A stretch of DNA of 64,000 nucleotides from an uncultured Candidatus Rokubacteria bacterium (GCA_963826115.1 CAWGVS010000011.1:32001-96000), one strand, 5' to 3'. Positions 3,277 through 42,926 are shown, counted from the stretch's first letter. Made by a program: numbers and translations. The notes: a model not told the origin generated them from the sequence alone.

Positions 3277-4893
3277 ATGACCTGCCTGAGCGAGCTCACG
3301 TGTTCGGTGTACGTCGACGGGGAGCTCTCCCCGGAGGAGACCCCGGCCGCCGAGGCGCATCTTGCGACCTGCGAGCGCTGCCGGTCGCTGGTCGCGGCGC
3401 TCCGGGATGAGATCCGAGTGGTCAGCGCGGCGCTCGCCGAGACGGCAGAGCCGGCGCCGTCGCCCGCTCCCGTCAGGGGGGCTGTCCTGGCCCCCGCTGC
3501 GGGGCGCGTCGCGACGAACGGCCGACGGACGTGGGGTCTGGCGGCGATCGTGGCGGCCCTGGCGGGGGCGGGGATCCTGGCCGTCCTCGCAGGGATCGCG
3601 ACGGTCGGCGACTGGACCGGCGCGGCCGTGGGCGCGGCGGTCTTCGTCGTGCTGAACGCCGAGACGCTGTGGGGCGCCCTCGCGACGCTGGCGCTCGCCA
3701 CGATGGCGGCGCTGACGCTGGCCGGCGCGGTCTATCTCGGGCGCCCCGCCTCGCGTGCGCTCGCGGGGCTCGCGCTGACGCTCGGGGTCGCGGCGGCGAT
3801 CGCCCCGTCGTCGGCCGAGGCGCTCGAGGCGCGGAGAGGCGTGGAAGTGTCGGTGGACGCCGGCGAGACCGTGGACGGGACCCTGACGGCCGCCGCCGAG
3901 CACGTCCGCGTGGACGGCAACGTCCGCGGGGACCTGATCGTCGCGGCGGCGCGCGTGGAGGTCCGGGGGACCGTGGGCGGCGATCTCGTGGTCGCGGGCC
4001 GCACCGTGGAGGTGACCGGCACGGTGGAGGGCAGCGTCTACGTCGCCGCCAGATCGTTCACGCTGCGCGGACGCGTGGGCCGGGGGCTCTATGCGGCGGA
4101 TCGCGAGACGCGCATCGAGCCGGGCGCGCAGATCGGGGGGGACCTCGCGATGGCGGGGCGGAGCCTGTTCCTCGGCGGCGAGGTGGCGCGGGGGGCGAGC
4201 ATGTTCGTGCGGGACGCGGAGGTGACCGGCCGCGTCCGGCGGGACCTCCGGTTCCGGGGTCACCGCCTCGTGGTGCGGGCGCCGGCGCGGCTCGAGGGCA
4301 TCGTGCGGGCCGACGTCGCGCGGGCCTCGGACGTCTCGGTCGACGCCGGCGCCGCCGTGACGGGGCCTGTGCTGACGCGCGTCGGGTCCCGGGTCGCCCA
4401 CTGGTTTGGCGAGCCCCGCGTCTGGTTCTGGGTGGCGACGAGCTTCTTCGGCGCGGCGCTCCTCGGCTGGGTGGCCCTGCTGGTCGTCCCGGGTCTAGTG
4501 GCGGGCAGCGCCGAGGACGTGGGGCGCTGGGGGCGATCCCTGGGATGGGGCGTTGCGTTTCTCGTCGGAGGCCCGGTCGCGATCGTGCTCCTCGCCGTGA
4601 CCCTGGTCGGCCTGCCGCTCGCCCTCGTCCTGCTGGGCCTCTACCTGCTCAGTCTCTACGCGGCGAAGATCGTCGTGGGCCTGGCGATCGGGCGCGCGCT
4701 CCTGAAGCCGCGGGGTCACCCCCGACGCGACGCGCTACGGGCGCTGGTGGTCGGGCTGGTGCTCGTCACCGTGGCCACGGCGCTGCCCTTCGTCGGCGGG
4801 GCGATCTGGGCGGCGATCGCGTGCCTCGGCGCCGGCGCGCTTGCGGCGCGGATCGCCCGCACGGCCCTCGGCGTGCGAAGCTCGGAGGCGTGA
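3277..4893 (+). CDS. Anti-sigma factor: zf-HC2 domain, TM segments, bactofilin-like beta-helix repeats and multi-TM C-terminus
   Basis: YVDGEL...HLATCERC ZAS motif; repeated V.G.V.GDL.V units; hydrophobic C-terminus. Confidence 0.85.
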   Translation: MTCLSELTCSVYVDGELSPEETPAAEAHLATCERCRSLVAALRDEIRVVSAALAETAEPAPSPAPVRGAVLAPAAGRVATNGRRTWGLAAIVAALAGAGILAVLAGIATVGDWTGAAVGAAVFVVLNAETLWGALATLALATMAALTLAGAVYLGRPASRALAGLALTLGVAAAIAPSSAEALEARRGVEVSVDAGETVDGTLTAAAEHVRVDGNVRGDLIVAAARVEVRGTVGGDLVVAGRTVEVTGTVEGSVYVAARSFTLRGRVGRGLYAADRETRIEPGAQIGGDLAMAGRSLFLGGEVARGASMFVRDAEVTGRVRRDLRFRGHRLVVRAPARLEGIVRADVARASDVSVDAGAAVTGPVLTRVGSRVAHWFGEPRVWFWVATSFFGAALLGWVALLVVPGLVAGSAEDVGRWGRSLGWGVAFLVGGPVAIVLLAVTLVGLPLALVLLGLYLLSLYAAKIVVGLAIGRALLKPRGHPRRDALRALVVGLVLVTVATALPFVGGAIWAAIACLGAGALAARIARTALGVRSSEA

Positions 4894-5564
4894 GCGTCGA
4901 GATCCGGACCGCCGCCGAGATCCTCACCCCCGAGCGAGCCGGGGCGTGGGAGGCCCGGCGGGCGCAGCGGGACGATCCGGTGCTCCGCGCCATCTGGCGC
5001 GCGTTCGTCGACACCGGCGGGCCGGTGACGCTCGACGGGGTGTCGCGGGCTCTCCGCGAGCTCACCGTCGACACGCTCCGCGAGCGGGCGTCCGCGCTGG
5101 ACGGCGCGGACCTGATCGGGTTCGAGGGAGAGCGGGTCGTTCTCGCGTACCCGTTCACGGCGGAGCCGAACGACTTCGAGGTGGTCCTGCCGGGCCGGCG
5201 GCACCGCTACGCGTGCTGCGCGATCGACGCGCTCGGCGTGGCGCCGATGCTGGGCGTGGGGGTGACGGTCCGCTCGCGCTGTCACCGGAGCGGCGACGCG
5301 CTGGTTCTCGACGTGGACCCGGAGGCCGGGCCTCTCGGGGCGCCGGCCGGCGTCGTCGCGTGGGTCGAGCGAGGCCGCTGGGGCGGCGACCGCCTCTCCG
5401 GCTTTCTCTGAACGCGCCTCAACTTCTTCCGGTCGGAGGAAGCGCTCGAGGCATGGCGCCGTGACACACCCGACGGGGACGGCGCTGCCCTCGTGCTCGC
5501 CGAGGCGTTCACGCTCGCGCGCCGGCTGTTCGGAGGGCTGCTCCTCCCGGCGGCCGCGCACTGA
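4890..5564 (+). CDS. MerB-like organomercurial lyase family selenoprotein (Sec at TGA 5409-5411)
   Basis: AYPFT, YACCAIDALG and VRSRCHRSG match MerB; readthrough gives FL-U-TRLNFFRSEEALEAW, aligning by eye with MerB FCCHVHFF; GTG start overlaps the anti-sigma stop; SECIS-like hairpin follows. Confidence 0.85.
5423..5442 (+). promoter_or_regulatory. Putative SECIS element (merB-like)
   Basis: CTTCTTCC-GGTC-GGAGGAAG hairpin starting 11 nt after the TGA. Confidence 0.8.
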
Positions 5565-5644
5565 CGGTCGGCGCCCGCGAGCGGGCCGGCGCGAGCCCGG
5601 CGTGTCATAATCGACGCGAGCGGTTCTCTCGGAAGGAGCGACTC

Positions 5645-6493
5645 GTGACGGACGGAACCTTCGGCTCGGTCGTCAGCACGGCGTGGCTCGGCGATCGACT
5701 GGGCGACCCCGCGCTGCGGATCCTCGACGCGACGTGGTACCTGCCGCACCTCCAGCGCGACGCGCGCGCGGAGTACCGCCAGGCGCACATCCCCGGCGCC
5801 CAGTACTTCGACATCGACGCGATCGCCGACCGCCGCCAGGGGCTGCCGCACATGCTGCCCGACGCGGCCACCTTCGCCGAGGCGGTCGGCGCCCTCGGGA
5901 TCGGCGCCGGCGACCACGTCGTGGCGTACGGGGGCAAGAACCTCGTGGCCTCCGCGCGCGTCTGGTGGACCTTCCGCGCGTTCGGGCACGACCGGGTGGT
6001 CGTGCTGGACGGGGGATTCCCGAAGTGGCGGGACGAGGGACGGCCGATCGAGGCCGGCGAGCCGACGACGACGGCGCGCCGGTTCACCGCCCGCTTCCAT
6101 CCGGAGTTGGTGACCGATCTCGCGGCCGTGCGGCGGAACGTCGAGACGCGGGTGACCCAGGTCGTCGACGCGCGCTCGGCGGGACGGTTCGCCGGCACGG
6201 AGCCCGAGCCCCGCGCCGGCCTCCGGGGCGGCCACATTCCGGGGAGCCTCAGCCTGCCGTACGACCGGCTCTTCGGGCCCGACGGCATGCTGCGCTCGCC
6301 GGACGACCTCCGCCGCGTCTTCGAGGGTGCCGGCGTCGCGCTCGACCGGCGGATCGCGACGACGTGCGGGTCGGGGGTGACGGCGTGCGTCCTCGCCCTG
6401 GGCCTCGATCGGGTCGGCCGTCCGGACGTCGCGGTCTACGACGGATCCTGGACCGAGTGGGGCGGCCGGGACGACGTGCCCGTGGAGCGGTAG
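5645..6493 (+). CDS. sseA: 3-mercaptopyruvate sulfurtransferase (tandem rhodanese)
   Basis: HIPGA, CGSGVTAC active-site loop and YDGSWTEWG. Confidence 0.92.
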   Translation: MTDGTFGSVVSTAWLGDRLGDPALRILDATWYLPHLQRDARAEYRQAHIPGAQYFDIDAIADRRQGLPHMLPDAATFAEAVGALGIGAGDHVVAYGGKNLVASARVWWTFRAFGHDRVVVLDGGFPKWRDEGRPIEAGEPTTTARRFTARFHPELVTDLAAVRRNVETRVTQVVDARSAGRFAGTEPEPRAGLRGGHIPGSLSLPYDRLFGPDGMLRSPDDLRRVFEGAGVALDRRIATTCGSGVTACVLALGLDRVGRPDVAVYDGSWTEWGGRDDVPVER

Positions 6494-6496
6494 CGC

Positions 6497-7582
6497 GTGC
6501 CGCGGCAGCGGATCGACCTCGAGCCGATCGACGCCCTCTCGATCCTCGACGAGGACGGGCGCCTCGACCAGGCCCTCGAGCCGGCGATCCCGGCGGACGA
6601 TCTCCGGCGCCTCTACCGAACGTTCCTCCTGGCGCGCCGGTTCGACGAGCGCATGCTGTTCCTCCAGCGCCAGGGCCGCATCGGCACCTACCTGCCGGCG
6701 CGCGGCCACGAGGCGGCGGTCCTCGGCAGCGTCTACCCGCTGCGCCCGACCGACTGGATGGTCCCCGTGTGGCGCGAGTGGGCGGCGTACGTCTGGCGCG
6801 GCTGGCCCCTCGACAACCTCATCCTGCTCTACGCGGGCCTGTCCGAAGGGACGTCGCCTCCCGCCGAGATCCGGGACCTGCCGGTGTGCGTCCCGATGGG
6901 GACCCACGTCCCTCACGCGGTCGGTGTGGCCTGCGCGGCCCGGGCTCGCCGCGAGGACAGCGTCGTGCTCTGCTACTTCGGCGACGGGGCGAGCTCCGAG
7001 GGGATCTGCCAGGAGGCGATGAACTTCGCGGGCGTCTACCAGGCGCCGATCGTCTTCGTGTGCGTCAACAACCAGTGGGCGATCTCGATCCCGCGCCTCC
7101 GGCAGACTCGGGCGAAGACCCTCGCCCACCGCGCCCTGGCCTACGGGTTCCCGGGCATCCAGGTGGACGGCAACGACCTCCTGGCCATGGTGGTCGCCAC
7201 CCGCGAGGCGGTGGCGCGGGCGCGCGAGGGCCGCGGCCCCACGCTCATCGAGGCCGTGACCTACCGGCTCCTGCCCCACTCGACGGCCGACGACCCGAAG
7301 AAGTACCGCGACGAGGCCGAGGTCCGGGCGTGGGAGGCGCGGGAGCCGCTGCCGCGCTTCCGTCGCTATCTCGAGGTGAAGGGGCTGGTTGACGACGCGC
7401 TCCGCTCCCGGTTCGAGGAGGAGGTGGACGCCGAGGTCCGCGCGGCCATCGAGCGGGCCGAGGTGCGCATGCAGGCGGCCCGGCCTCTCGCGATGTTCGA
7501 CCACGTCTACGGCGACGTCCCGGCCGAGATCCTCGCGCAGCGGGCCGAGTTCGAGCAGGAGCTCGAGGGGGACCGCCGCTGA
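6497..7582 (+). CDS. pdhA: 2-oxoacid (pyruvate) dehydrogenase E1 alpha subunit
   Basis: LQRQGRIG, GDGA...NNQWAIS TPP motif, TYRL.PHST.DDP..YR. Confidence 0.88.
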   Translation: MPRQRIDLEPIDALSILDEDGRLDQALEPAIPADDLRRLYRTFLLARRFDERMLFLQRQGRIGTYLPARGHEAAVLGSVYPLRPTDWMVPVWREWAAYVWRGWPLDNLILLYAGLSEGTSPPAEIRDLPVCVPMGTHVPHAVGVACAARARREDSVVLCYFGDGASSEGICQEAMNFAGVYQAPIVFVCVNNQWAISIPRLRQTRAKTLAHRALAYGFPGIQVDGNDLLAMVVATREAVARAREGRGPTLIEAVTYRLLPHSTADDPKKYRDEAEVRAWEAREPLPRFRRYLEVKGLVDDALRSRFEEEVDAEVRAAIERAEVRMQAARPLAMFDHVYGDVPAEILAQRAEFEQELEGDRR

Positions 7583-7595
7583 CCCCGCAGGCGAG

Positions 7596-7670
7596 CTACT
7601 CGATGACTCGGTCGGCCCGTGCCAGCAGGGACGGGGCGAGGGCCAGACCGAGAGCCTCGAGCGCCTCCTC
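7596..7670 (-). pseudogene. Remnant 3' tail of an ABC_sub_bind-type substrate-binding protein gene
   Basis: Minus frame reads ALGLALAPSLLARADRVIE*, the characteristic C-terminus of this family; the rest of the gene is absent. Confidence 0.6.
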
Positions 7671-7678
7671 CCCGTGAA

Positions 7679-9232
7679 TCACGCGTCGCGGTCGATGGTG
7701 GCGCGCGGGCGGCTGTCGCGGTCCAGGAAGTAGTTGATCCAGGAGCTCGTGCCCCGGAGGGCGCGGTCCGGCGGGGGCACGAGGGTCAACAGCTCTCGCT
7801 CCCGTCCGGCCGCGCGGGCGCGCGCGTGCATGCCGACCCACACGCAGGGCTGGTCGGCGACCTCGCAGCGCCCGAGGTGGGTGCCGCCGCACGGCCCGTT
7901 CCGGAGCCGCTTCGGGCAGGTCTCCGGGCAGACGTACTCGAGGTGGCCGAGCACGCAGTTGCCGCACGCCTGGCACCCGAACAGCGGCCGCTTGACCGCC
8001 AGCTCGAGCCGCTCGACCGCCTGGGCCACGGCGGGCCGCCGGTCCGCCCAGGCGGCGACTCGGGCGAGCGCGCGCCGGAGAGCCGTGTCCCGCGTCACCG
8101 GGAGGAGCCGGCCGAGCCCGTCGAGGAAGCGGGCGATCCCGCGGCGCCACGACCCTTCCTCGTCCGTCGCCACCGCGAGGCGGTGGGTGCCCGGGACGGG
8201 CTGCGGCCCGGCCGCTCCCGCTTCTGGAGCCGCCACGCGGCTGGCGGGCCGGTCGTAGAGGTAAAAGCCACCCGCAAGCCCGTAGCGGAGCTCCTGCGCC
8301 AGCTCCTCCCAGCGCGGGGCCAGGTCGCGCGCGCGCCGGATGATCCACGCGACGTGGTCGGCGTCGTGCGTGCCGCCCAGGTACGCCCCCGCGTAGCCGA
8401 GCCCCCGGAGTACGGCGACCGTGCGCGCCGCCCGCTCGAGGCGGGCCCGGAGCCCGCCGTCCTTCGCGCGCGCCTCCTGGCGCACTGTTTCGAGGAGCTC
8501 CGGCGACACCCAGCATCCCGGCGGCTCGCCGCGGGCCATCCGCTCGGCGGCGCGAGGGCCGAGGACGTACACGTTGCCGAGGAGAGGGATCCGGAGGCTC
8601 TTCTCGTCGACGTACCGGCGGAGCTCGCGGAACTTCTCGGCGTCCCACCCCACCTGCGTGATCGCGCAGTCGGCTCCCGCCGCCACCTTCTTCTCGAGCT
8701 TCAGGTACTGCCAGACGCAGTCCCCCTCGACGTACTTGAAGGGCGAGACCGCGACGGCGACGTGGAGCCGCCGACCGGCGCGGCGCCGCTCATGGATCAT
8801 CCGCACGAGGTGGACGGAGTCGACGTCGAAGACCGGCGACTCCGGCGGGGGACCGCCGGGACGCGGACGGGGCCAGTCCCCGGTCAGCGCGAAGACGTTC
8901 TCGATGCCGAGCGCCTGCAGGTCCTCGATCGTCTTCCGGAGGCCCGCGCGGTCCTGGCCGACGCATGTGACGTGGATGTTGGGCGTGAGCCCCCGGGCCC
9001 GCGCGGCGGTGCCCACCCGCATCGGGTCGTGCCCCATCGCGCCGCCCGCGTAGCTCGTGATGCTGCCCGCCACGACGTCGGGCACCCGCGCGAGCCGGGA
9101 CGCCACCTCGAGGAGCTTCGCCTCGCGCTGGAGGCCGGACGCGACCAGCTCGACGACGTAGCAGAAGCGGCCCGCGCCGAGGGCGTCGGCCAGCGGGTTC
9201 GCGGCGAGCGGTTGTTCGGGCTCCGGAGTCAC
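7679..9232 (-). CDS. metF: Methylenetetrahydrofolate reductase with C-terminal Cys-rich MTHFR_C (MetV-like) domain
   Basis: ALTGD, KKVAAGADCAITQ; C-terminal CQACGNC...CPETCPKRLRNGPCGG...CEV...CVW. Confidence 0.85.
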   Translation of the reverse strand: MTPEPEQPLAANPLADALGAGRFCYVVELVASGLQREAKLLEVASRLARVPDVVAGSITSYAGGAMGHDPMRVGTAARARGLTPNIHVTCVGQDRAGLRKTIEDLQALGIENVFALTGDWPRPRPGGPPPESPVFDVDSVHLVRMIHERRRAGRRLHVAVAVSPFKYVEGDCVWQYLKLEKKVAAGADCAITQVGWDAEKFRELRRYVDEKSLRIPLLGNVYVLGPRAAERMARGEPPGCWVSPELLETVRQEARAKDGGLRARLERAARTVAVLRGLGYAGAYLGGTHDADHVAWIIRRARDLAPRWEELAQELRYGLAGGFYLYDRPASRVAAPEAGAAGPQPVPGTHRLAVATDEEGSWRRGIARFLDGLGRLLPVTRDTALRRALARVAAWADRRPAVAQAVERLELAVKRPLFGCQACGNCVLGHLEYVCPETCPKRLRNGPCGGTHLGRCEVADQPCVWVGMHARARAAGRERELLTLVPPPDRALRGTSSWINYFLDRDSRPRATIDRDA

Positions 9233-9278
9233 GGGATCACCCGATCCGGCGGGCTCGACGGGAGGGGCCCGCCCGGGA

Positions 9279-10286: not shown

Positions 10287-10344
10287 GGGCATGTCTCCAC
10301 TCCACATCGGGCTGCTGCGATGGCCGCGAGGTCAAGGGCCCGCC

Positions 10345-12023: not shown

Positions 12024-12518
12024 ATGCGAGGGAATCTCGTGGTGGGCGGTCGCTTTCCCGATCTCGAGCTGCCCGATCACCGGCGGCAACCCGCGACGCT
12101 GAGCGGGCTGGCCGACGGGTTTCCGCTGATCGTGTCCTTCTACCGGGGCTACTGGTGACCCAAATGCCAGTGCCAGTTGAGGCACTTGGTCGAGTTCCAG
12201 AACGAGCTCGAAATCAACTACTGCCACCTCGCGGTGATCAGTACCGACCCGCCGGAGATCTCGGCCGCGTTCCGCGCCGGATTGGGCGCCACGTTCACGT
12301 TCCTGAGCGACCATGACCGCCGGGCCGTTCGGGAGCTCGACATCGTGGACGAGACGGACCGGAATCACCCTCGGATCGCGTACCCGTGGAGCTTCTCGAT
12401 TGGGCCGGATCTCGTGATCCACAAGATCTACGACGGCGGCTGGTTCGTGGGTCGCCCGACGCTCGAGGAGCTGCGACAGGACCTGCGCGCGATGATGCTC
12501 GCCTACCACCCGGACTGA
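12024..12518 (+). CDS. AhpC/TSA (peroxiredoxin-like) redoxin selenoprotein, UxxC motif (Sec at TGA 12156-12158)
   Basis: GGAGG RBS; FPDLELPD...FYRGYW-U-PKC continues in frame into AVISTD...FLSD; SECIS-like hairpin follows. Confidence 0.9.
12167..12189 (+). promoter_or_regulatory. Putative SECIS element (redoxin)
   Basis: CCAGTGCC-AGTTGA-GGCACT(T)GG hairpin; loop G is 18 nt after the TGA. Confidence 0.7.
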
Positions 12519-16263: not shown

Positions 16264-16303
16264 GGGCGGAGCGAGCCGTCCGGACCTCGTCGTCGCTCCC
16301 CTG

Positions 16304-17071
16304 GTGACATCGACCGCGCCCCTGCTCGCCCTCGAAGGTGTCTCGAAGGCCTTCGCGGGCGTGCAGGCGGTTCGGAGCGTGAGCCTCGAGGTCCCGGCGG
16401 GAGCGGTCGTCGGGATCATGGGGCCGAACGGCTCCGGCAAGACCACGCTGTTCAACCTGATCGCGGGGGCGCTGCGCCCCGACCAGGGGCGCATCCGCCT
16501 CCGTGGTCAGGACGTCACCCGGCTTCCCTCGCACCGCCGGTGCGCGCACGGCGTGGCGCGCACCTTCCAGCACGTGCGGCCGTTTCCGGGTCTCACGGCA
16601 ATCGACAACGTCCTGGTGGGGCTCCTCCACGGGCGCCGGCGGACTCACGGGCGCGACGCCGAGCGCGCCGCGACGCGCTTCCTGGCCCTGGCGGGCCTCG
16701 AGGACAAGGCGCACGTGCCCGGGGCGCGCCTGAGCCTGCTCGAGCGCCGGCGCCTCGAGCTCGCGCGCGCGCTCGCCACCGGCCCGGAGCTCCTCCTGCT
16801 CGACGAGTTCATGGCCGGCCTGACCCCGGCCGAGACCGGGGACGCGATGGCGGTCATCCGCCGGATCCGGGACGAGGGCGTGACCCTCATGCTCGTGGAG
16901 CACATCGTGTGGGCGCTCCTGGACCTCTCGAACCGGATCGTCGTCCTCAGCGCGGGGGAGAAGATCGCCGAGGGCGCCCCGGGCGCGGTGGCGGTGGACC
17001 CGGCCGTCGTCGAGGCATACCTGGGGCGGGAGGGAAGCGGAGGGAGCGCGGGGAGCCGGTCGCGTGCTTGA
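16304..17071 (+). CDS. ABC transporter ATP-binding protein (LivG-like)
   Basis: GPNGSGKTT Walker A, ARTFQ, LLLDE. Confidence 0.92.
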   Translation: MTSTAPLLALEGVSKAFAGVQAVRSVSLEVPAGAVVGIMGPNGSGKTTLFNLIAGALRPDQGRIRLRGQDVTRLPSHRRCAHGVARTFQHVRPFPGLTAIDNVLVGLLHGRRRTHGRDAERAATRFLALAGLEDKAHVPGARLSLLERRRLELARALATGPELLLLDEFMAGLTPAETGDAMAVIRRIRDEGVTLMLVEHIVWALLDLSNRIVVLSAGEKIAEGAPGAVAVDPAVVEAYLGREGSGGSAGSRSRA

Positions 17072-17783
17072 GGTCCGAGACCTCGACGCGACGTACGGAG
17101 AGCTCCGGGCGCTGGTCGGGGTCGGCCTGCAGGTCGGCGCCGACGAGATCGTGGCGCTCGTCGGCTCCAACGGCGCCGGCAAGACGACGCTGCTCCGGTG
17201 CATCACCGGTCTCACGCGCCCGCGCGCCGGCCGGATCCTGTGGCAGGGCCAGGACCTCGTCGGGCTTGCGCCGCACCGCGTGGTCGAGCGCGGCGTCGCG
17301 ATGGTACCCGAGGGCCGCCGGCTCTTCGGGCACATGACGGTCGAGGAGAACCTCTCGCTCGGTGGGTTCAGCGCCCGGGCGCGCCCCGAGCGCCAGGCGA
17401 CCCTCGACCGCATCTACGGGATCTTCCCCCGGCTGGCCGAGCGCCGACGGCAGCGGGCCGGCGCCCTGTCGGGCGGCGAGCAGCAGATGGTGGCGATCGG
17501 ACGGGCGCTCATGACGCGCCCGAGCCTCCTGATCCTGGACGAGCCTTCGCTCGGCCTCGCGCCGCGCGTGGTCGAGCTCGTGCTCGGGGTGCTCGGCGAG
17601 ATCAACCGCGCGGGGGTCGGGGTCTTCCTCGTGGAGCAGAACGTCCGGGCCGCACTCGGCCTGGCCCACCGCGCCTACGTGCTGGAGCAGGGCCGGGTGG
17701 TGGGGCAGGGCCCCAGCGCCGAGATCCTCGCGGATCCCGGCGTGCGCCGCGCGTATCTCGGGCCGCTCGCGGTCGAGCCGTGA
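17064..17783 (+). CDS. ABC transporter ATP-binding protein (LivF-like)
   Basis: GSNGAGKTT, LSGGEQQM, DEPSLGLAP. Confidence 0.92.
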   Translation: MLEVRDLDATYGELRALVGVGLQVGADEIVALVGSNGAGKTTLLRCITGLTRPRAGRILWQGQDLVGLAPHRVVERGVAMVPEGRRLFGHMTVEENLSLGGFSARARPERQATLDRIYGIFPRLAERRRQRAGALSGGEQQMVAIGRALMTRPSLLILDEPSLGLAPRVVELVLGVLGEINRAGVGVFLVEQNVRAALGLAHRAYVLEQGRVVGQGPSAEILADPGVRRAYLGPLAVEP

Positions 17784-17796
17784 CGGTGGGACGGGC

Positions 17797-18669
17797 GTGA
17801 CCGGACTCCTCCAGCAGCTGGTCCTCGGCGTCCTGCTGGGGAGCCTCTACGGGCTGGCGGCCGCCGGCCTGTCCCTCGTGTTCGGCGTCCTGCGGGTGCT
17901 CAACGTGGCGCACGGCGAGCTGATCATGCTGGGCGGATACGCCGCCTTCGCCCTGGTGGCGATCCTGGGGCTCGATCCGTTCCTGGCGCTGCTCCTGATC
18001 ATCCCGCTGGGAGGTCTGCTGGGCGCCCTCCTCTACGCCGGGCTGTTCCGCTTCATCGTGCGTCACGGCGAGGAGACGCGGATCAAGAACTCGCTCCTCG
18101 TCGGATTCGGTCTCGCCCTCACCCTCCACGCGCTGGCCGTGCGGCTCTTCACGGCGGACGAGCGGTCGATCACCACCGCCTACCGCGGACGCTCCCTCGT
18201 GCTGGGGGGTGTGGTGTTCCCCCTCGGGCGCGTCCTGAACTTCGTCGTCGCGCTCGCCCTGATCGCCGTGCTGCATCAGTTCCTCCAGCGGGCCCGCTGG
18301 GGCCAGGCGATCCGCGCGACCGCCGAGGACTGGGAGGCCGCGAGCCTGCTCGGGATCGACGTCCGGCGCGCCTACACGCTGGCCTTCGCCATTGGCACCG
18401 CGCTGGCGGGAACCGCCGGTACGCTCATCAGCCTGGGCTACTCGATCAGCCCCTCCATCGGGCTCGAGTGGACGCTGAAGGCGCTGATCGTGATCGTGCT
18501 GGCCGGGCTCGGGTCCGCGTTCGGCACGCTTGCGGGCGGCATCCTGCTCGGGTGCGCCGAGGCGCTGAGCGCCGTGGCGTTCGGGGGCGCCTACCGCGAG
18601 GTGGTCGGGCTGCTCCTCTTCTTCTGCGTCCTGGTGGCCCGTCCCCAGGGCCTGTTCGGGCGAGCGTGA
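17797..18669 (+). CDS. ABC transporter permease (LivH-like)
   Basis: GLSLVFGVLRVLNVAHGE; G.AIRATAED. Confidence 0.92.
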   Translation: MTGLLQQLVLGVLLGSLYGLAAAGLSLVFGVLRVLNVAHGELIMLGGYAAFALVAILGLDPFLALLLIIPLGGLLGALLYAGLFRFIVRHGEETRIKNSLLVGFGLALTLHALAVRLFTADERSITTAYRGRSLVLGGVVFPLGRVLNFVVALALIAVLHQFLQRARWGQAIRATAEDWEAASLLGIDVRRAYTLAFAIGTALAGTAGTLISLGYSISPSIGLEWTLKALIVIVLAGLGSAFGTLAGGILLGCAEALSAVAFGGAYREVVGLLLFFCVLVARPQGLFGRA

Positions 18670-19787: not shown

Positions 19788-21161
19788 ATGGCGACGTCCG
19801 AGAGCTTCCCCGCGCTCGGAGCGATTCCCGTCGGCTACGGACCCGAGGGTATCGCCGTCGACGGCGAGGGCCGCCGGGGCTACGTCGCGTGCGCGCGGGC
19901 CAACACGGTCGCCGTCTTCGACCTCGATTCCCGCGAGGTGATCGCCCAGGTGCCGGTCGGCCAGGAGCCGATCGGGCTCGTGCACGACCGGGACGGCGGC
20001 CGCGTCTTCTCGACGGACGCCCGCTCCGACGTCGTGTCGGTCATCGACACCGCGAGCCTCAAGATCGTCAAGCAGATCCCCGTGCAGCACTACCCGGCCG
20101 GCGCGGGGTTCTACGCCGAGCGCCGCAAGATGTACGTCGGGAACACTGCCGACGGGACGGTGAGCGTCATCGACGCCGACCGGCTCGAGGTCATCGCGAC
20201 CGTCCCGACCAAGCTCGCGGCGGGGAGCCTCGGGGCCGATCCGATCCGCGACCGCGTCTACTGCGTCAACTTCGGGGACGCGTCGATGACGCTGATCGAC
20301 GGCGAGAAGAACGAGGCGATCGGCGAGATCAAGCTCGACTACGCGCCCTGCAAGATCGCGGTCGACGCGCGGCGGGGGCGCGCCTACGTGGCGAACTCCC
20401 TCGTCAGCACCGTCTCGGTCGTCGATCTCGACCGGCAGGAAGTCGTGGACACGCTGACCGTGGAGCGCGCGCCCGTCGGCATGGGCCTGGGACGCCAGGG
20501 CGACCGCATCTACGCGGCCAACCGGGGGACCGGGCACGTCAGCGTGATCGACCGGGAGAGCGGCCGCGAGTGGGCGCGGGTGCCGGTCGGCAAGGCCCCC
20601 GGGGACCTGGCGGTCGACCAGCAGTCGGGGACGGTGTACGTGTCCGACGCCGGGACCAGCACCGTCAGCGTGTTCCAGGACCGGCTGGACGGCGCGCCGG
20701 CCGAGCTGCCCAAAGACTGGCGTCACCCGCTCGTCGGCAAGCCGCTCCCTTCGTTCAGCCTGCCCGACATGGTGGACGGGCGGCCGCGCACCTCGGAGGA
20801 GTTCAGAGGGAAGAAGTACATCCTGAACTTCTTCGCCAGCTGGTGAGGGCCCTGCAACGCGGAGGCTCCGCTACTCGAGGAAGTGCGTCGCCGGGCCAAG
20901 AAGTTCGGGCTCGAAATCGTCATGGTCAACGTGTGGGAGCACGTGGATCCACGGCGTGAGGCCCAGCATTTCTGCAAGATCCACAACATCGAGGGCACGG
21001 TGCTGATCGACGCCACCGGGGAGTACATCACGCGGCTCGGTCTCCGCGGAGTGCCCCACAACGTGGTCGTCGACAAGAAGGGCATCGTCCAGGCGGTCGG
21101 GGTCACGACCCCCGACGAGGTCCGCGCCACCCTGACCAAGCTGCTCCTGCCCTTCGGCTAG
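19788..21161 (+). CDS. YVTN beta-propeller fused to a TlpA-like thioredoxin domain; selenoprotein with UGPC (Sec at TGA 20844-20846)
   Basis: About seven V.VG..P...YVAN..VSVID repeats, then LPSFSLPD...ILNFFASW-U-GPCNAEAP, in frame with VPHNVVVDKKG; GAGGAG RBS. Confidence 0.88.
20859..20871 (+). promoter_or_regulatory. Putative SECIS element (propeller-TlpA)
   Basis: GCGGA-GGC-TCCGC hairpin 12 nt after the TGA; loop G at +18. Confidence 0.6.
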
Positions 21162-30758: not shown

Positions 30759-30771
30759 GACGGGCCGAAGC

Positions 30772-32761: not shown

Positions 32762-32767
32762 CGCCCG

Positions 32768-33790: not shown

Positions 33791-33913
33791 GCTGGACCTC
33801 CCTGGAGCGCCGCGCGCGATCATCCGCTCGCGACTCTCTCCCTCCATTATGCAACCGGACGCCGGAGCAGCGAGTTCCCGCGACGACGCCGCGGGATGAA
33901 GGGAGAACCCCGA

Positions 33914-35478: not shown

Positions 35479-35533
35479 GTCTCGATTGTATCCGACGTTG
35501 CGTGGTCCCGGAAGGGTGCGTAGGATGCGCGGC

Positions 35534-36580: not shown

Positions 36581-36628
36581 GGTGGAGGCGAGGAGCCTGG
36601 ACTGACGACGCCCGATCCGTCCGACGCG

Positions 36629-37291: not shown

Positions 37292-38100
37292 CCGGCTTCG
37301 CCGGGAAGGTGGCCGTGGTGACCGGCGGCGGCAGCGGCATCGGGCGCGCCCTGTCCGTCTCGCTGGCTCGCGAGGGGGCCCACGTCGTGGTGGCCGATGT
37401 CGCCGAGGCCGACGCGGAAGAGACCGTGCGGCTGGCGAGCGCCGCCGGCGGCGAGGCCGTGGCCGTCCGGACCGACGTGGCCGACCGACAGCAGGTGGAG
37501 GCGCTGGCGGACCGCGTGTTCGACCGCTTCGGGGCGACCCACCTCCTGTTCAACAACGCCGGCGTGGTCGTCCACGGCGGCCTCGAGTCCGCGACGTGGC
37601 AGGACTGGCAGTGGGTCGTGGGGGTGAACCTCTGGGGCGTGATCCACGGTGTCCTGGCGTTCGTGCCGCGCATGATCGCGGGCGGCCAGGGCGGCCACGT
37701 CGTGAACACCGCGTCCATGGCGGGGCTCATCGCGTCGCAGGGACTCGGGGTCTACAACACCACGAAGTACGCGGTGGTCGGGCTCTCCGAGACGCTCGCG
37801 AAGGACCTCCGCCCGCACGGGATCGGCGTCACGGTCGTGTGCCCGATGGGCGTCGCGACGCGGATCCGCCAGGCGGGACGGAACCGGCCCGCCGCGCTGC
37901 GGAACGCCGAGTCGGCCGCCGAGGGCGCCGAGATGACCCTGATCGGGCGCACGCTGGACGCCGACGACGTCGCGCGCCAGACGCTCGCAGCGATCCGGAC
38001 CGGCTCGCTCTACGTCATCACGCACGATGAGGCCCTCGAGCCGCTGCGCCGTCGCTTCCAGCGGCTGGAGGCCGCGATCCGGAGGCGCCCGCAAGTTTGA
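37288..38100 (+). CDS. SDR oxidoreductase
   Basis: TGGGSGIG, NNAG, YNTTK. Confidence 0.92.
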   Translation: MTGFAGKVAVVTGGGSGIGRALSVSLAREGAHVVVADVAEADAEETVRLASAAGGEAVAVRTDVADRQQVEALADRVFDRFGATHLLFNNAGVVVHGGLESATWQDWQWVVGVNLWGVIHGVLAFVPRMIAGGQGGHVVNTASMAGLIASQGLGVYNTTKYAVVGLSETLAKDLRPHGIGVTVVCPMGVATRIRQAGRNRPAALRNAESAAEGAEMTLIGRTLDADDVARQTLAAIRTGSLYVITHDEALEPLRRRFQRLEAAIRRRPQV

Positions 38101-38125
38101 CACCGGCGCGAGCGACGGCTATTCT
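38097..38125 (+). promoter_or_regulatory. Sigma70 promoter TTGACA-N17-TATTCT
   Basis: TTGACA at 38097-38102 and TATTCT at 38120-38125, upstream of GGAG RBS and ATG 38141. Confidence 0.75.
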
Positions 38126-38140
38126 GAGCGCGGAGTATTG

Positions 38141-38464
38141 ATGGACGAGCGAGACGTCGTGCGCGATCTGGTGGCGAAGTTGATCGAGGCCGTCGAAGCG
38201 TCGCTCGACGCCTCCCCGGCGGTGCGCGAGGCGCTCGACGAGCTGGTCAAGAACGGATTCGAGCCGCGGCTCATGCTCCTCGCGGACGCCGCCGCGCGCT
38301 CCGCCGACGCGAGCGAGCCCGCCGCCGATGCCTCCGAGGCCGCGGACGACGATCACGATGCCGACGAGGACGAGCTCGACGAGGTGCGCGACTTGCAGTA
38401 CGAGCTGACCAAGCTCGACCGCGACTTCCTGCGCACGGTCCGCATCCAGCCGGAAAGCGGTTAG
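38141..38464 (+). CDS. Small acidic hypothetical protein
   Basis: Own promoter and RBS; ends LTKLDRDFLRTVRI. Confidence 0.75.
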   Translation: MDERDVVRDLVAKLIEAVEASLDASPAVREALDELVKNGFEPRLMLLADAAARSADASEPAADASEAADDDHDADEDELDEVRDLQYELTKLDRDFLRTVRIQPESG

Positions 38465-38499
38465 CCAGCGGGCTCCGCCCGCCGCCCCCCGGGAATCGC

Positions 38500-38760
38500 G
38501 TGGTCCGCTTCCTCGCGCTCGCGATCGTCGCTTTCCTCCTCTTCCTGATCATCCGGGCGAGCGTCCGCGCATTCCTGGCGGGCCTCGGCGTCGGCGCCCG
38601 CCCGGCGACGCCGCAGCGCGCCCGCCGCGACGAGCTCGTCAAGGACCCGGTCTGCGAGACCTACATCCCGCGCCAGAAGGCGATCAGCCGGGGGAGCGGG
38701 GCGGACACCCGGTACTTCTGCAGCGCCGCCTGCGCGGACAAGTTCACCGCGCGCTCGTGA
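38500..38760 (+). CDS. YHS/TRASH-domain membrane-anchored protein
   Basis: N-terminal TM; DPVCETY...YFCSAAC. Confidence 0.85.
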   Translation: MVRFLALAIVAFLLFLIIRASVRAFLAGLGVGARPATPQRARRDELVKDPVCETYIPRQKAISRGSGADTRYFCSAACADKFTARS

Positions 38761-39626
38761 GCCCCTCGACGGAGGGTGCGCGTTCCGGCCCGCCGGCGTT
38801 CGAGCGGCGTGGCTCCGCCGCCGATCCCTACCGCGCCGTCGACCGCCAGGCGGATCCCCGGCGGTTCGCCAGGATCCTCGAGACCCGCGGCGCCCAGCCG
38901 CACCAGGCCCGCCTCCGCCGCGGCTTCCTGTCGCTGGCCGGCGTCGGAGCGGGGATGCGGGTGCTCGACGTCGGCTGCGGCACCGGGGTCGTGACGCGAG
39001 ACGTGGCGGCGCGCGTGGGACCGCGGGGCGTCGTCGTCGGGATCGATCCGAGCCGCGCCCTCCTTGCGGTGGCGCGACGCCGGGTCGGCGCCGCCGGCCC
39101 CGCGGCCCGGGCGACCTTCCGCCAGGCCGATGGCCTGGCGCTGCCCTTCGCCCCGGCGTCGTTCGACGTCACCCTGGCGGTCACGGTGCTCCTCCACGTG
39201 CCGGCCGGCGACCGGATCCTCGGCGAGATGATCCGCGTGACGCGCCCGGGCGGCCGCGTGGCCGTCCTCGACCAGGACTTCGGCACGCTGGTCCTGGACG
39301 CGCCCGACCGCGCGCTGACACGGCGGATCGTGGACGGGCACGCCGAGCGCTTCTACGCCGAGCCGTGGAGCGGCCGGACACTTCTGCGCCGCCTCCGCCG
39401 CGCGGGGCTCGTCCGCGTGCGGAGCCGGGTCTTCGTCGTCGTGGATCCGGTCTACGACGACTACGTCCGTTCGATGCTCGAGCGGCGCGTGGATCTCGCC
39501 ACCCGCTGGCGCCTGGTGACGCCCGGGGAGGGACGCCGCTGGCTCGGGACCCTCGAGGCGGCCGCGGCCCGCGGCGAGTTCTTCATGAGCCTCAACTACG
39601 TCGGCGTCGTCGGGGTGAGGCCGTAA
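38757..39626 (+). CDS. Class I SAM-dependent methyltransferase (UbiE-like)
   Basis: VLDVGCGTG, LPFAPASFD, RVTRPGG. Confidence 0.9.
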   Translation: MSPSTEGARSGPPAFERRGSAADPYRAVDRQADPRRFARILETRGAQPHQARLRRGFLSLAGVGAGMRVLDVGCGTGVVTRDVAARVGPRGVVVGIDPSRALLAVARRRVGAAGPAARATFRQADGLALPFAPASFDVTLAVTVLLHVPAGDRILGEMIRVTRPGGRVAVLDQDFGTLVLDAPDRALTRRIVDGHAERFYAEPWSGRTLLRRLRRAGLVRVRSRVFVVVDPVYDDYVRSMLERRVDLATRWRLVTPGEGRRWLGTLEAAAARGEFFMSLNYVGVVGVRP

Positions 39627-40582
39627 GCGCGGCGTCGCCGCTCGGGCGCCGGGCGGTCCTCGAGGGGGCGCTTCTCGCCGCGCTCGTGGGGCTCCCGCGC
39701 GCCCGCGCGGACGCCGCGACGCCCGGGGCCTTCGACGGCGTCCGGGCCCTCCGCGACGTGGAGCGGGTCGTCGCCCTCGGTCCGCGCCCGGCGGGGTCGA
39801 CCGCCTCGGCCCGGACCCGGGGCTACCTCGCGACCGAGCTCCGGGCGGTCGGCTGGCGCGTCCGAGAGCTCTCCTTCACGGCGCGCACCCCGCGCGGTCC
39901 GGTGGCGATGACCAATGTCATCGCGGAGTGGCCGGGGCGGGGGAACGACATCATCGCGGTCGGCGGCCACTACGATACGAAGGTCTTCGACAAGCTCCGG
40001 TTCGTGGGCGCGAACGACGGAGGCTCCTCGACCGCGCTCCTGATCGAGCTGGGCCGCGCGCTCGCCCCGCGTTTCCGCGCCGAGCCGCCGGCGCTCACGC
40101 GGTGGCTGGTCTTCTTCGACGGCGAGGAGGCGCTGGTCGAGTGGTCGGCGACCGACAGCCTGTACGGGAGCCGCGCGCTGGTGGCGGCGCTCCGGGCGTC
40201 GGGCGAGCTCGGCCGCCTCCGCGCCCTCGTGGTGGCCGACATGGTCGGGGACCGCGACCTCGTGATCCCGCGCGACGCGCAGTCCACGCCGTGGCTCGCC
40301 GGGATTCTGTGGGCGACGGCGCGGCGACTCGGCTTCGAGCGGCACTTCCCGGACCGGCCCCAGACGGTGGAGGACGACCACCAGCCGTTCCTGGACGCCG
40401 GGGTGGCGGCCGCGCTCCTGATCGATCTCGACTACGGCGGGCTGCCCGGGACGAACGCCTACTGGCACACCGCGGAGGACACGCTGGACAAGCTCTCCGC
40501 GGAGAGCCTCGGTGTGGCCGGGACGGTGATTCTCGAGTCCTTGCCCGCGATCGAAGCCGAGCTGGCGCGCCGGGCTCGGTAG
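39623..40582 (+). CDS. M28 family peptidase/glutaminyl cyclase-like protein, possible Tat signal (start codon uncertain)
   Basis: HYDTK, GANDGGSS, FDGEE, DMVGD, DDH.PF, WHT; LGRRAVL leader. The expected start position reads GTA rather than GTG. Confidence 0.85.
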   Translation, partial: VSAASPLGRRAVLEGALLAALVGLPRARADAATPGAFDGVRALRDVERVVALGPRPAGSTASARTRGYLATELRAVGWRVRELSFTARTPRGPVAMTNVIAEWPGRGNDIIAVGGHYDTKVFDKLRFVGANDGGSSTALLIELGRALAPRFRAEPPALTRWLVFFDGEEALVEWSATDSLYGSRALVAALRASGELGRLRALVVADMVGDRDLVIPRDAQSTPWLAGILWATARRLGFERHFPDRPQTVEDDHQPFLDAGVAAALLIDLDYGGLPGTNAYWHTAEDTLDKLSAESLGVAGTVILESLPAIEAELARRAR

Positions 40583-40604
40583 CCGCGCCGCTGCGCGCGG
40601 CCCG

Positions 40605-41375
40605 TCAGAAGGTGTAGGTCTGGTCCTGCTCCAGGACGTGCACCCGATCGCCCAGCCGCTCGAGTTCGTCGGACGTCTCCTCGAAGTGGGCGGGCTTGAT
40701 GTGGTACACCCAGAGCGGCGCGTCGGGCATCTTCTCCATCTCACGCTTGAGGAGATTGGGCGTGAGGTGGCCCGACTTCGTGGCCAGGTCCTCCAGGCGG
40801 TTCGGGAAGGCGGTCTCCACGATGATCGCGTGGATGCCCTTGAACTCCCGCGCGACCTTCCAGATCTCGTCGGTCGGACCGGTGTCACCCGAGAACACGA
40901 GACCTGACGTGCCGTCGTGGATGATGAACCCGGTGGCCGGGACCGAATGCTGGACGGGGACGGGCACGACGGTCAGGGACCCGAACTCGATGGCCTCGCG
41001 CTCGCGCAGCGTCTGGAGGCGCAGCGCCGGGTCCTCCGGGGTCGGGAGCTTCGTGAAGTCGGGCCAGAGTCGATTGTTGAAGCAGTGGGTGCGGAGATCG
41101 TCGACCACGGGGGCGATCGACGCCGCCGTCACCGCGGCGTTGCGGCCGGCGGCCGTCTGGGCGGACTGGATGTTGTCGACGAGGTACGCCAGCCCGACGG
41201 TGTGGTCGAGGTGCGCGTGCGAGATCAGCACGTGCTCGATGCCCGCCTGGGCGCCGAGTGGCAGGGCGCTGGTCACCGAGCCCGCCTCGAGGAGGACGTG
41301 GCCGTTGATCAGGAAGCTGGGCAGGCGCCGCTTCGGCACGCTGCCGCCGTGGCAACCGAGGATCTCGATGAGCAT
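40605..41375 (-). CDS. MBL-fold 3',5'-cyclic nucleotide phosphodiesterase-like protein
   Basis: LGCHGG, SHAHLDH, FNNRLWPDF, SGDTG. Confidence 0.85.
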   Translation of the reverse strand: MLIEILGCHGGSVPKRRLPSFLINGHVLLEAGSVTSALPLGAQAGIEHVLISHAHLDHTVGLAYLVDNIQSAQTAAGRNAAVTAASIAPVVDDLRTHCFNNRLWPDFTKLPTPEDPALRLQTLREREAIEFGSLTVVPVPVQHSVPATGFIIHDGTSGLVFSGDTGPTDEIWKVAREFKGIHAIIVETAFPNRLEDLATKSGHLTPNLLKREMEKMPDAPLWVYHIKPAHFEETSDELERLGDRVHVLEQDQTYTF

Positions 41376-41560
41376 GCGGCTCGCGGTTGTCAGGCCCGCT
41401 CGCCCTGCCGTATAGTGTCCGGTGCCGTGGCCGCCCCCTCGTGGATGACCCGCTGTCCCGCGGGCTGGAAGGTCCTGTCGGTGTCGGGGATATATCCCAC
41501 AGCGCACCGCGGAAAGTCAAGCTTGGCGAGCGCGTTCGTGACGCTCGCATGGAGGGCCGA

Positions 41561-42343
41561 GTGAGCTGGGTCAAGACCAATCACGTGAAGCGCGCCCTGC
41601 GCGAAGGGCGCCCGACGTCGGGCGCGTGGCTCCATCTCTGCAGCGCGATCAGCGCGGAGGTCATGAGCCGCGCTGGCTTCGACTGGCTGCTCATCGACAT
41701 GGAGCACGGGCACGGCGACCTCCAGACCCTGCTCGGTCAGCTGCAGGCCATCGAGGGTAGCGACACGATCCCGGTGGTCCGCGTCCAGTCGAACGACGCG
41801 GCCATCATCAAGCGCGTGCTCGACATGGGCGCCTACGGCGTGATGGTGCCGTGGATCGGCGGGCGCGCCGACGCGGAGGCGGCGGTGCGGGCCGCCAAGT
41901 ACCCGCCCGACGGCATCCGAGGCATCGCCGGCAGCCACCGCGCCGGCGGCTACGGTCGCCACGCGGCGGAGTACTGGAAGCGCGCGAACGAGGAGATCCT
42001 GGTCGTGCTGCAGGTGGAGACGCGCACCGCCGTCGAGGAGATCGACCAGATCGTGCGAGTTCCCGGTGTGGACGTGATCTTCATCGGGCCGGGCGACCTG
42101 TCGACCGCGCTCGGGCACATGGGCAACCCCGGCCACCCCGACGTGCAGGCGGCCTTCGCGCGCGTGGAGAAGGCGACGCGCGCAGCCGGCCTCGCGCTCG
42201 GCAACATCACGCGCGGCTGGGACCAGGTGAAGGAGCTGTACGGAAAGGGGTACCAGTTCCTGACGCTCGGCTCCGACACGTCGCTGGTGGTGTCGGGGAG
42301 CCAGGACCTGGTCGCCCGCTTCCGACAGGACATCCGGCCGTGA
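41561..42343 (+). CDS. HpcH/HpaI aldolase family protein
   Basis: GFDWLLIDMEHG, YPP.G.RG, QVET, FIGPGDLS. Confidence 0.92.
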   Translation: MSWVKTNHVKRALREGRPTSGAWLHLCSAISAEVMSRAGFDWLLIDMEHGHGDLQTLLGQLQAIEGSDTIPVVRVQSNDAAIIKRVLDMGAYGVMVPWIGGRADAEAAVRAAKYPPDGIRGIAGSHRAGGYGRHAAEYWKRANEEILVVLQVETRTAVEEIDQIVRVPGVDVIFIGPGDLSTALGHMGNPGHPDVQAAFARVEKATRAAGLALGNITRGWDQVKELYGKGYQFLTLGSDTSLVVSGSQDLVARFRQDIRP

Positions 42344-42362
42344 CGGGCCGGAAGGTCGCCGG

Positions 42363-42926
42363 GTGAGCGAGCCGCGCACGGGCCGGATCCCGCCGATCGA
42401 CCCAGCGGCCGCGCCTCCGGAGCTACGCGAGCTCTTCGAACGCCAGGAAGCGCAGTGGGGCGCGCCGCTCGGCCCCACGCTGGTCCTGGCGCACTGCCCG
42501 CCGCTGGTGCGGGCCGCCGCGGGGCTATCGGTGGGCCTCGAGAAGTCCGGGCAGCTCCCGGCGGAGCTCCGCGACCTCGTGTGTCTCCGCGTCGCCCAGC
42601 TCATCGGGTGCCCGTTCTGAATGGACATCAACTCATCCCGGGGGATGAGCCACGGCGCCACGATCGAGAAGCTCTCGGCGGTGGATCGGTTCCGCGACAG
42701 CCCGCTCTTCAGCGACGCGGAGCGCGCCGCGCTCGCCTTCGCGGAGGCCGCGACCCGGACGCCGACCGTGGTGACGGACGCGGAGTTCGACCTGGTGCGG
42801 CGGCACTACACGGTCCCACAGATCGTCGAGCTCGCGGCGACGATCGCGATCGAGCACTTCCGGGCGAAGTTCAACACCGCCCTCGGCGTGCAGAGCCAGG
42901 GCCTCTGCTTCCTCCCGCCCCGCTGA
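42363..42926 (+). CDS. AhpD/CMD-family selenoprotein, CxxU motif (Sec at TGA 42618-42620)
   Basis: LRVAQLIGCPF-U-MDIN continues in frame to SPLFSDAERAALAFAEA; SECIS-like hairpin follows. Confidence 0.88.
42632..42649 (+). promoter_or_regulatory. Putative SECIS element (AhpD-like)
   Basis: CTCATCC-CGGG-GGATGAG hairpin 11 nt after the TGA. Confidence 0.78.

Follow-up and report, generated by a model that had tools for sequence, protein, structure and literature searches.

Four genes in a 64,000-nucleotide (nt) stretch of DNA from an uncultured Candidatus Rokubacteria bacterium are very probably genuine bacterial selenoprotein genes, each with one UGA that would be read as selenocysteine (Sec) by the standard route. 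We call the whole stretch the window. It is C11:32001-96000, part of contig C11 in a bin of 6.24 Mb, 12 contigs and 72% GC, and positions given below without a contig name are counted from its first nucleotide. The four genes encode a MerB-like protein, an AhpC/TSA-fold (Prx-like) protein, a YncE-like β-propeller fused to a TlpA/ResA-like thioredoxin-fold domain, and an AhpD/CMD-fold (YciW-like) protein. From sequence comparison we infer Sec insertion itself, as opposed to Cys insertion or termination, and the enzyme activities discussed below.

All four genes lie on the plus strand. The MerB-like gene occupies 4890-5564 (224 amino acids (aa), GTG start, TGA stop at 5562-5564), with its predicted Sec codon, U174, at 5409-5411 in the context FL-U-TRLNFF. 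The AhpC-like gene (12024-12518; 164 aa, U-P-K-C motif) has its predicted Sec codon, U45, at 12156-12158 in the context YW-U-PKC. In the propeller-TlpA fusion (19788-21161; 457 aa, TAG stop, W-U-G-P-C motif) U353 lies at 20844-20846 (SW-U-GPC), and in the AhpD-like gene (42363-42926; 187 aa, C-P-F-U motif) U86 lies at 42618-42620 (GCPF-U-MD). A first-pass annotation of this DNA had reported in-frame TGAs at 5409, 12156, 20844 and 42618 on the plus strand, in open reading frames (ORFs) whose domains resume beyond them. Our coordinates and contexts agree with that report, as do the Pfam matches, in which a single domain runs across each break. Pfam MerB (PF03243) covers residues 89-215 of the MerB-like protein and all 126 profile positions (83.9 bits against a threshold of 27, E 1.2e-23), and AhpC-TSA (PF00578) covers residues 7-133 of the AhpC-like protein (65.7 bits against 26, E 5e-18). 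Redoxin spans residues 316-443 of the fusion (E 4e-20), which also carries YNCE/NHL repeats, and CMD spans residues 52-129 of the AhpD-like protein (46.6 bits, E 3.5e-12).

The TGA codons are conserved among relatives, for which we used 151 sampled genomes of the phylum (Methylomirabilota/Rokubacteria) and, for the AhpD-like gene, 71 genomes of the order. The MerB-like, selA and AhpD-like tallies include two unpublished genomes (G101 and G058), and no result rests on either. MerB-like matches were found in 65/151 genomes and gave 74 match rows, 59 with the TGA and 15 without it (13 full-length and 2 N-terminal pieces). The TGA stood at the same column in 24/24 fetched loci, a set that may include one genome via two collections (23 distinct sequences entered the codon analysis). 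In seven more distant MerB-like loci the TGA again lies five codons before a conserved FF pair; in five of these seven the tblastn column was shifted by an insertion. The AhpC-like gene had matches in 35/151 genomes (35 of 38 rows with TGA), and the AhpD-like gene in 56/71 (84 of 85 rows); at the U45 and U86 columns, respectively, TGA was present in 30/30 fetched loci. Within the phylum, the only full-length orthologues of the propeller-TlpA fusion came from f1, the family of the window itself, with TGA in 8/8 fetched loci.

As the first-pass annotation had anticipated, simple gene calling by coding potential split or truncated all four genes of the window. It returned a 173-aa stub for the MerB-like gene, only 12186-12518 for the AhpC-like gene, 352 + 92 aa for the TlpA fusion and 85 + 101 aa for the AhpD-like gene. 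Public protein records look much the same: in a collection of 5.8 billion proteins, nearly all of the best 120 of 355 matches to the MerB-like protein are 172-173 aa long, with 77% query cover. Separate pieces are also what a simple caller would output if the TGAs were ordinary stops and the genes were nonsense-broken pseudogenes or were naturally split into two translated pieces. The AhpD-like gene lends this some colour, having an ATG directly 3′ of its TGA and a second copy in the bin, on contig C5, that breaks off precisely at the U codon, which shows that such genes can decay. We nevertheless regard this explanation as extremely unlikely. Different species share the same TGA at 24, 30, 8 and 30 loci and also conserve the protein sequence beyond it, with this conservation extending to about 45% identity. 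The codon after the AhpD-like TGA is ATG, ATC, ATT, GTG, GTT or ACG in relatives, with no conserved start. Three control sites, each with a true stop and the next gene in frame (L171, L173 and L174), gave two separate domains each instead of the single domain that spans each break in the window.

The columns occupied by these TGAs hold Cys in homologues that lack the TGA. All 11 fetched TGA-less full-length MerB-like homologues (of 13 such rows) have TGT or TGC at the U174 column, and in a 20-sequence alignment with full-length homologues that column is Cys in at least 90%. The sole TGA-less AhpC-like row that covers the U45 column has TGC (1/1). For the other two proteins, the Cys/TGA pairs that the first-pass annotation had proposed looking for come from solved relatives. 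In CycY (1kng), ResA and TlpA, the residue matching U353 of the fusion is the leading Cys of WCxxC; the residue matching U86 is the second CxxC Cys in the debrominase Bmp8 (6ohi, E 1e-15) and in other CMD-fold proteins. Cys at the propeller-TlpA and AhpD-like Sec columns was also found in paralogues inside the bin. In the MerB-like protein, U174 is five residues N-terminal of the FF pair, as is Cys159 in the solved MerB chain. The claim that each TGA sits at the catalytic Cys thus stands for the MerB-like, TlpA and AhpD-like proteins; for the AhpC-like protein the peroxidatic register is ambiguous. There, HMMER needs a 3-residue gap to bring U45 onto the peroxidatic Cys (2ywn). An ungapped alignment (2cx3) places U45 on a Ser/Thr three residues before the peroxidatic Cys and C48 on the peroxidatic Cys itself. 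More distant homologues have U-P-K-D or C-P-K-E, keeping the U column and losing C48. Because they retain Sec or Cys at U45 and lose C48, this column is, judged from the alignments, a conserved redox position of the family whichever register holds.

The machinery for Sec insertion, which the first-pass annotation had suggested searching for, is present in the bin. selA (C8:83339-84706; 576 bits), the adjoining selB (C8:81424-83304; 348 bits) and selD (C5:561687-562604; 393 bits) are all over their curated cut-offs, and selD has one in-frame TGA inside itself. The tRNA-Sec gene (C8:85942-86039, anticodon UCA) was the only UCA tRNA found by ARAGORN, which typed it SeC; together selB, selA and selC form a cluster on C8. 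In the proposed route, SelD would make selenophosphate, SelA would turn Ser-tRNA-Sec into Sec-tRNA-Sec, and SelB would bring Sec-tRNA-Sec to the ribosome when a stem-loop of the selenocysteine insertion sequence (SECIS) type begins 7-12 nt past the UGA. Sec would then take the place of a thiol enzyme's redox- or metal-active Cys, with the replaced sites predicted to be MerB-type Cys159, the first UxxC residue (Prx-like and propeller-TlpA) and the last CxxU residue (AhpD/YciW-like).

A recoding of UGA at the four sites to Cys or another residue, not Sec, would look similar. Recoding by a tRNA-Sec-like tRNA charged with Cys is known. The inserted residue cannot be told from sequence alone, and homologues of the four proteins have Cys at these positions. 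Set against this, selA and selD, which are required only for Sec-tRNA-Sec, are present and intact, and the single UCA-anticodon tRNA is typed as tRNA-SeC. In addition, selA is kept above cut-off in 133/151 sampled genomes of the phylum (88/98 of the high-quality ones and 6/6 of the window's genus). We therefore consider insertion of a residue other than Sec very unlikely.

Nothing beyond the bare in-frame TGAs speaks for a sequencing or assembly error, or for a genome-wide code change in which TGA encodes Trp or Gly, and the chance of either is negligible. Error is countered by the recurrence of the TGAs across independently assembled genomes of relatives, which answers the refutation by error that the first-pass annotation had envisaged. 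One public metagenome contig is identical to the window over 4800-5689, although the source sample may be its origin. The TGA sites are bridged by contigs of two other public metagenomes at about 94-95% identity, and a single RNA-library contig near 12156 stops short of bridging the Sec codon. Overall, public metagenome contigs (soil, wetland and plant-associated) cover the window only partly (share at most 0.33). As for a code change, among 3775 long ORFs with a strong coding signal in the bin, 2529 stop at TGA, 1146 at TAG and 100 at TAA, and homologues have Cys at the columns in question, not Trp or Gly. Since TGA is the commonest ordinary stop, its recoding here is site-specific and the code is not reassigned, which is how the first-pass annotation had read it.

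A SECIS-like hairpin follows each TGA. In the MerB-like gene it spans 5423-5442 (+; CUUCUUCC / loop GGUC / GGAGGAAG; -10.8 kcal/mol), in the AhpC-like gene 12166-12190 (+; GCCAGUGCC / loop AGUUGA / GGCAC-U-UGGU; -13.3 kcal/mol), in the TlpA fusion 20859-20871 (+; GCGGA / loop GGC / UCCGC; -7.0 kcal/mol, the weakest of the four) and in the AhpD-like gene 42632-42649 (+; CUCAUCC / loop CGGG / GGAUGAG; -9.9 kcal/mol). In the same order, the spacer from TGA to hairpin is 11, 7, 12 and 11 nt, and the distance from the TGA to the first loop G is 20, 18, 18 and 20 nt. The first-pass annotation was thus right about the hairpins themselves and about a loop G at +18 to +20, whereas its spacing of 8-12 nt has to be widened to the measured 7-12 nt. 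At the TlpA site a long-range pairing was also predicted; we dropped it in favour of the short hairpin, since it is unconserved in relatives. The arrangement resembles Sec insertion at E. coli fdhF in that the four machinery genes are present and a stem-loop with an apical-loop G (mostly GU) begins 7-12 nt past the UGA. The difference is that the hairpins here are short (5-9 bp) and have no Rfam match. A GGUC or GGUCU loop recurs across genes that include the MerB-like gene and the bin's formate dehydrogenase.

Several observations weigh against reading these sites as Sec codons followed by functional hairpins. Folding of the 60 nt after each TGA, proposed as a check by the first-pass annotation, gave a mixed answer: the AhpC-like fold is better than expected (z -4.26; 0/200 shuffles fold as well), and the other three are not better than dinucleotide shuffles (z -0.54, -1.13 and -0.21). 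A loose SECIS rule fires at 36.9% (at -7.0 kcal/mol or below) and 19.2% (at -9.9 or below) of 2427 random in-frame coding positions, and at 27-44% of 1500 ordinary TGA stops, 27% of which reach -9.9 or better. The TlpA hairpin, with only 5 bp, a 3-nt loop and -7.0 kcal/mol, is marginal. No Rfam family matched anywhere in the window at gathering thresholds, and no Rfam SECIS family matched the 81-nt stretches round each TGA at E<=10, although Rfam may not cover such hairpins. The Rfam snoRNA and sRNA matches that did appear round the TGAs (E 6-9) are at chance level and were discarded. At the MerB-like site, a HMMER pairwise alignment places U174 on MerB Cys160, not Cys159; we prefer the Cys159 register because of the ungapped FF anchor and the family alignment. 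Finally, the Sec machinery is on C8 and C5 and the window's genes are on C11, possibly not in one cell, a worry offset by the near-universal presence of selA in the phylum.

In a 72% GC genome, then, single hairpins are weak evidence and individually unremarkable. They carry weight because they track the TGA, coincide with raised synonymous conservation, show some compensation and are enriched over a larger set of sites. All 24 fetched MerB-like TGA loci keep a hairpin (22/24 of the AAC-UUC-UUC-CGG-UCG-GAA-GAG type, with 2 scoring best with an alternative), and the 11 Cys-form homologues have none better than -4.9 kcal/mol, even with the NFFRS motif kept. Similarly, the TGC-bearing AhpC-like homologue has no hairpin better than -5 kcal/mol. 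Over its 30 loci the AhpC-like stem occurs in two registers, GUGCC...GGCAC or the shifted GGUGC...GCACC. The AhpD-like stem shows one compensatory change, U-A to G-C, between families f1 and f2, and in one locus (L129) the hairpin is rebuilt with a GGUCU loop. The TlpA hairpin is invariant in its 8 loci, and two relatives gain two extra A-U pairs.

In three of the four families, synonymous codons at +1 to +11 are more conserved than those elsewhere in the gene. The top codon's share is 0.906 against 0.655 (p 2e-4) for the MerB-like gene, 0.925 against 0.787 (p 0.007) for the TlpA fusion and 0.950 against 0.718 (p 0.005) for the AhpD-like gene; for the AhpC-like gene the difference (0.798 against 0.713) was not significant (p 0.08). 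We also scored 27 TGA sites across the bin, picked by two-sided coding potential and a Sec/Sec or Sec/Cys match within the bin, with hairpins ignored. Hairpins of -7.0 or below followed 26/27 (p 1e-10) and hairpins of -9.9 or below followed 22/27 (p 5e-12; binomial against background). Recurrent loops in this set were GGUC(U), AGUUG, GUG and GUC. Five further sites (C10+233668, C12-365771, C12-260609, C5-121141 and C6+1057598) were excluded from it for their off-frame or stop-plus-start artefact look.

The expectation that four such genes in 64 kb point to a very selenoprotein-rich genome was borne out, with the qualification that "genome" here means the bin and that C11 probably comes from a relative. 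Pfam scans of read-through fragments found a TGA-spanning domain in 29 bin genes, the window's four included. Their families comprise AhpC/TSA/Redoxin, CMD, UGSC, DSBA, DsrE, rhodanese, Thioredoxin_3, OsmC, ThiF/MoeB, GATase and molybdopterin formate dehydrogenase. Adding selD and second copies of the MerB-like gene and of the propeller-TlpA fusion gives 32 well-supported selenoprotein genes, and weaker GrdB-like and FwdB-like genes raise the count to 34. The scan is non-exhaustive: its first thresholds passed over the TlpA site, the second MerB-like copy and selD. Five sites in which no Pfam domain was found (L166, L167, L169, L170 and L172) were left out of the count. At 34 genes in 6.24 Mb about 0.35 would be expected per 64 kb, so the window's four are a local excess. 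The congeneric genome G096 also has the MerB-like, TlpA and AhpD-like genes in synteny, within a span of about 36 kb.

From about 16 kb on, C11 is collinear with, and inverted relative to, the end of C5 (C5:~2,003,000-2,125,000) at about 78-88% nucleotide identity, and matches of at least 500 nt to C5 cover 181 of its 239 kb. The MerB-like gene is single-copy in each congeneric genome, and the bin has a second copy. Given this collinear copy at 78-88% identity, the single copies in congeners and an estimated contamination of the bin of 5.3%, C11 is most likely a co-binned contig of a sister species and not part of the same chromosome set as the main genome. The four gene calls are untouched by this. 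If C11 is indeed co-binned, at most 5 of the 34 selenoprotein genes are double-counted or come from another cell, and the Sec machinery on C8 and C5 would strictly belong to the sister genome.

The MerB-like protein is the least conventional of the four. An AlphaFold model built from the family alignment had a predicted local distance difference test score (pLDDT) of 89.6 and a predicted template modeling (TM) score (pTM) of 0.88, and the top 11 Protein Data Bank (PDB) matches of the model in Foldseek were all MerB or MerB2 (TM 0.54-0.76, E ~1e-11). phmmer matched the protein directly to canonical MerB (E 1.9e-8). Residues C110 and D113, both nearly invariant in the family, align with MerB Cys96 and Asp99. 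Compared with canonical MerB (plasmid R831b; 3F0P, 1S6L), the protein is predicted to have the same fold (TM 0.65-0.76), with C110-x-x-D113 corresponding to Cys96/Asp99. It differs in having a putative Sec in place of Cys159, in falling below the curated NCBIfam MerB cut-offs (61.1 against 193 bits for NF009710 and 51.5 against 200 for NF033555) and in having no mer operon in the window. The protein would keep the MerB catalytic set with Se for one S, which points to a carbon-metal lyase or a tight metal binder.

Upstream of the MerB-like gene, window positions 2702-4893 (+) encode an extracytoplasmic function (ECF)-type sigma factor and then an anti-sigma factor of 540 aa that has both a zf-HC2 zinc finger and a bactofilin domain. 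The anti-sigma stop overlaps the MerB-like GTG start (GTGA), and a two-domain rhodanese gene lies downstream. The anti-sigma/MerB/rhodanese order was full in 5/7 and partial in 2/7 close loci (65-76% identical), and was found in 0/14 loci at about 45% identity. Because this order is absent beyond close relatives, we draw no function from it. A mer operon (merR, merA, merT/P) was not found around the window's MerB-like gene, and none of the five genomes searched had a MerA above cut-off.

Two loci in relatives are of separate interest. In G033 (L028, G033:C142:24047-27706) a Sec MerB-like gene has as its neighbors a full-length MerB paralogue of the Cys type and a divergently oriented MerR-family regulator; it is the only mer-like context that we saw for a Sec MerB-like gene. 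In G045, a MerA-like pyridine-nucleotide disulfide reductase with one in-frame TGA (G045:C3:55194-56507, -; 346 bits, under the MerA cut-off) adjoins the Sec MerB-like gene at G045:C3:57114-57773, and a similar reductase, likewise with a TGA, is found at G096:C69:91947-93260.

A MerB-like organometallic lyase that is a selenoprotein, SaoL, is already known (as presented in parts of bioRxiv 10.1101/2022.07.06.499078 and in a table of PMC13188914). Passages of the preprint put the identity between SaoL and MerB below 15%, and in them its authors state that they are aware of no selenoprotein in mercury resistance. Our protein shares with SaoL (NF040728) the Pfam family PF03243, a predicted Sec at the MerB Cys159 position about 50 residues before the C-terminus, and truncation at that point in databases. 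Unlike SaoL, whose motif is C-U and whose gene lies in the SAO transporter operon, the MerB-like protein here has the motif (F/S)-L-U-T, and its gene neighbors a sigma factor, an anti-sigma factor and a rhodanese. It also scores under the SaoL cut-off (42.1 against 140 bits), in a match covering only residues 33-143. We tentatively suggest, as a possibility that is less probable than not, that these genes represent an undescribed, phylum-wide Methylomirabilota clade of MerB-type carbon-metal lyases in which Cys159 is Sec, distinct from SaoL and nearer to authentic MerB. Our literature search found no paper on Sec in Rokubacteria/Methylomirabilota MerB (supplementary lists were not covered), and a term search of a 2021 survey of mer genes did not find the word selenocysteine. 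The clade appears to be undescribed in print.

The other three proteins resemble selenoproteins of known kinds. AhpD-like CxxU, Prx-like UxxC and Trx-like/TlpA-like UxxC proteins are among the known selenoprotein families listed in a part of PMC9312934. Like AhpD-like/YciW (COG2128) CxxU selenoproteins, the AhpD-like protein has the CMD fold and a C-x-x-U motif with the putative Sec second. Against NF053654, the "YciW-related (seleno)protein" model, it scored 135.7 bits (cut-off 310), so it is related to that equivalog without belonging to it. Like Prx-like and TlpA-like UxxC selenoproteins, the AhpC-like protein and the fusion have U-x-x-C on a thioredoxin fold, with the TlpA Sec predicted at the first motif position. 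Unlike the listed TlpA-like UxxC proteins, our TlpA domain is fused to a YncE-like β-propeller of about 300 aa, and its motif, F-A-S-W-U-G-P-C, does not fit the ResA-like WAxxUGC model NF041054 (47.4 against 300 bits). In all three oxidoreductases, Sec would probably provide a more nucleophilic and more readily re-reduced center.

The solved structure closest to the AhpD-like protein is Bmp8 (6ohi). Because Bmp8 is the nearest among solved structures, a weaker lead is that the AhpD-like protein may be a Sec-dependent reductive dehalogenase that parallels the deiodinases of animals. The C5 copy of this gene (G000:C5:2055627-2055869, -), the counterpart of window 42363-42620, matches as far as ...GCPF and then continues for 10 unrelated codons to its end. 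It diverges exactly at the window's Sec codon, and the next gene, a HAD hydrolase, is intact. The copy is a remnant of the gene, broken at the UGA position.

Other sites in the bin were seen in passing. G000:C6:536318-537483 (-) holds a back-to-back pair of selenoprotein genes, some 560 nt apart: one encodes a Prx whose peroxidatic position reads G-P-U, the other a TlpA-like protein with W-U-P-D-C. A class-I glutamine amidotransferase domain (L163, G000:C10:35908-36510, -) has a TGA at the nucleophile position (G-T-U-G-G-F-Q), with no good hairpin by the SECIS rule (-2.0). A glutamine amidotransferase is reported as a new selenoprotein family in a section of PMC12013277. Within the window, two ABC-transporter ATPase genes (16287-17927, +) had a depth 100-300 times that of their neighbors in public metagenome contigs. 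This peak most likely reflects cross-mapping from the conserved ATPases of many organisms, and not a property of the locus.

The mechanism proposed here is textbook, three of the four families belong to selenoprotein kinds already known, and the richness of the phylum was already reported in 2026. In that report (Deng et al. 2026, Cell Rep, as cited in a part of PMC13188914), a metagenome-assembled genome (MAG) of the same phylum, Methylomirabilota, has 63 predicted selenoprotein genes; our bin is lower, at 32-34 by a non-exhaustive scan. The four families may already be in the list of Deng et al.

The main value of our analysis is the correct annotation of genes that ordinary calling splits. 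It also adds a cross-checked example of large selenoproteomes in Methylomirabilota/Rokubacteria, which are common soil and groundwater bacteria. The MerB-like Sec clade is the part worth following, and it bears on the handling of organometals by soil bacteria. If its members cleave organomercurials or other organometals via a Se-Hg intermediate, they would be the first selenoenzyme of the mercury-resistance type. In that case, soil merB surveys that require Cys159, together with truncated gene calls, would systematically overlook the Sec clade.

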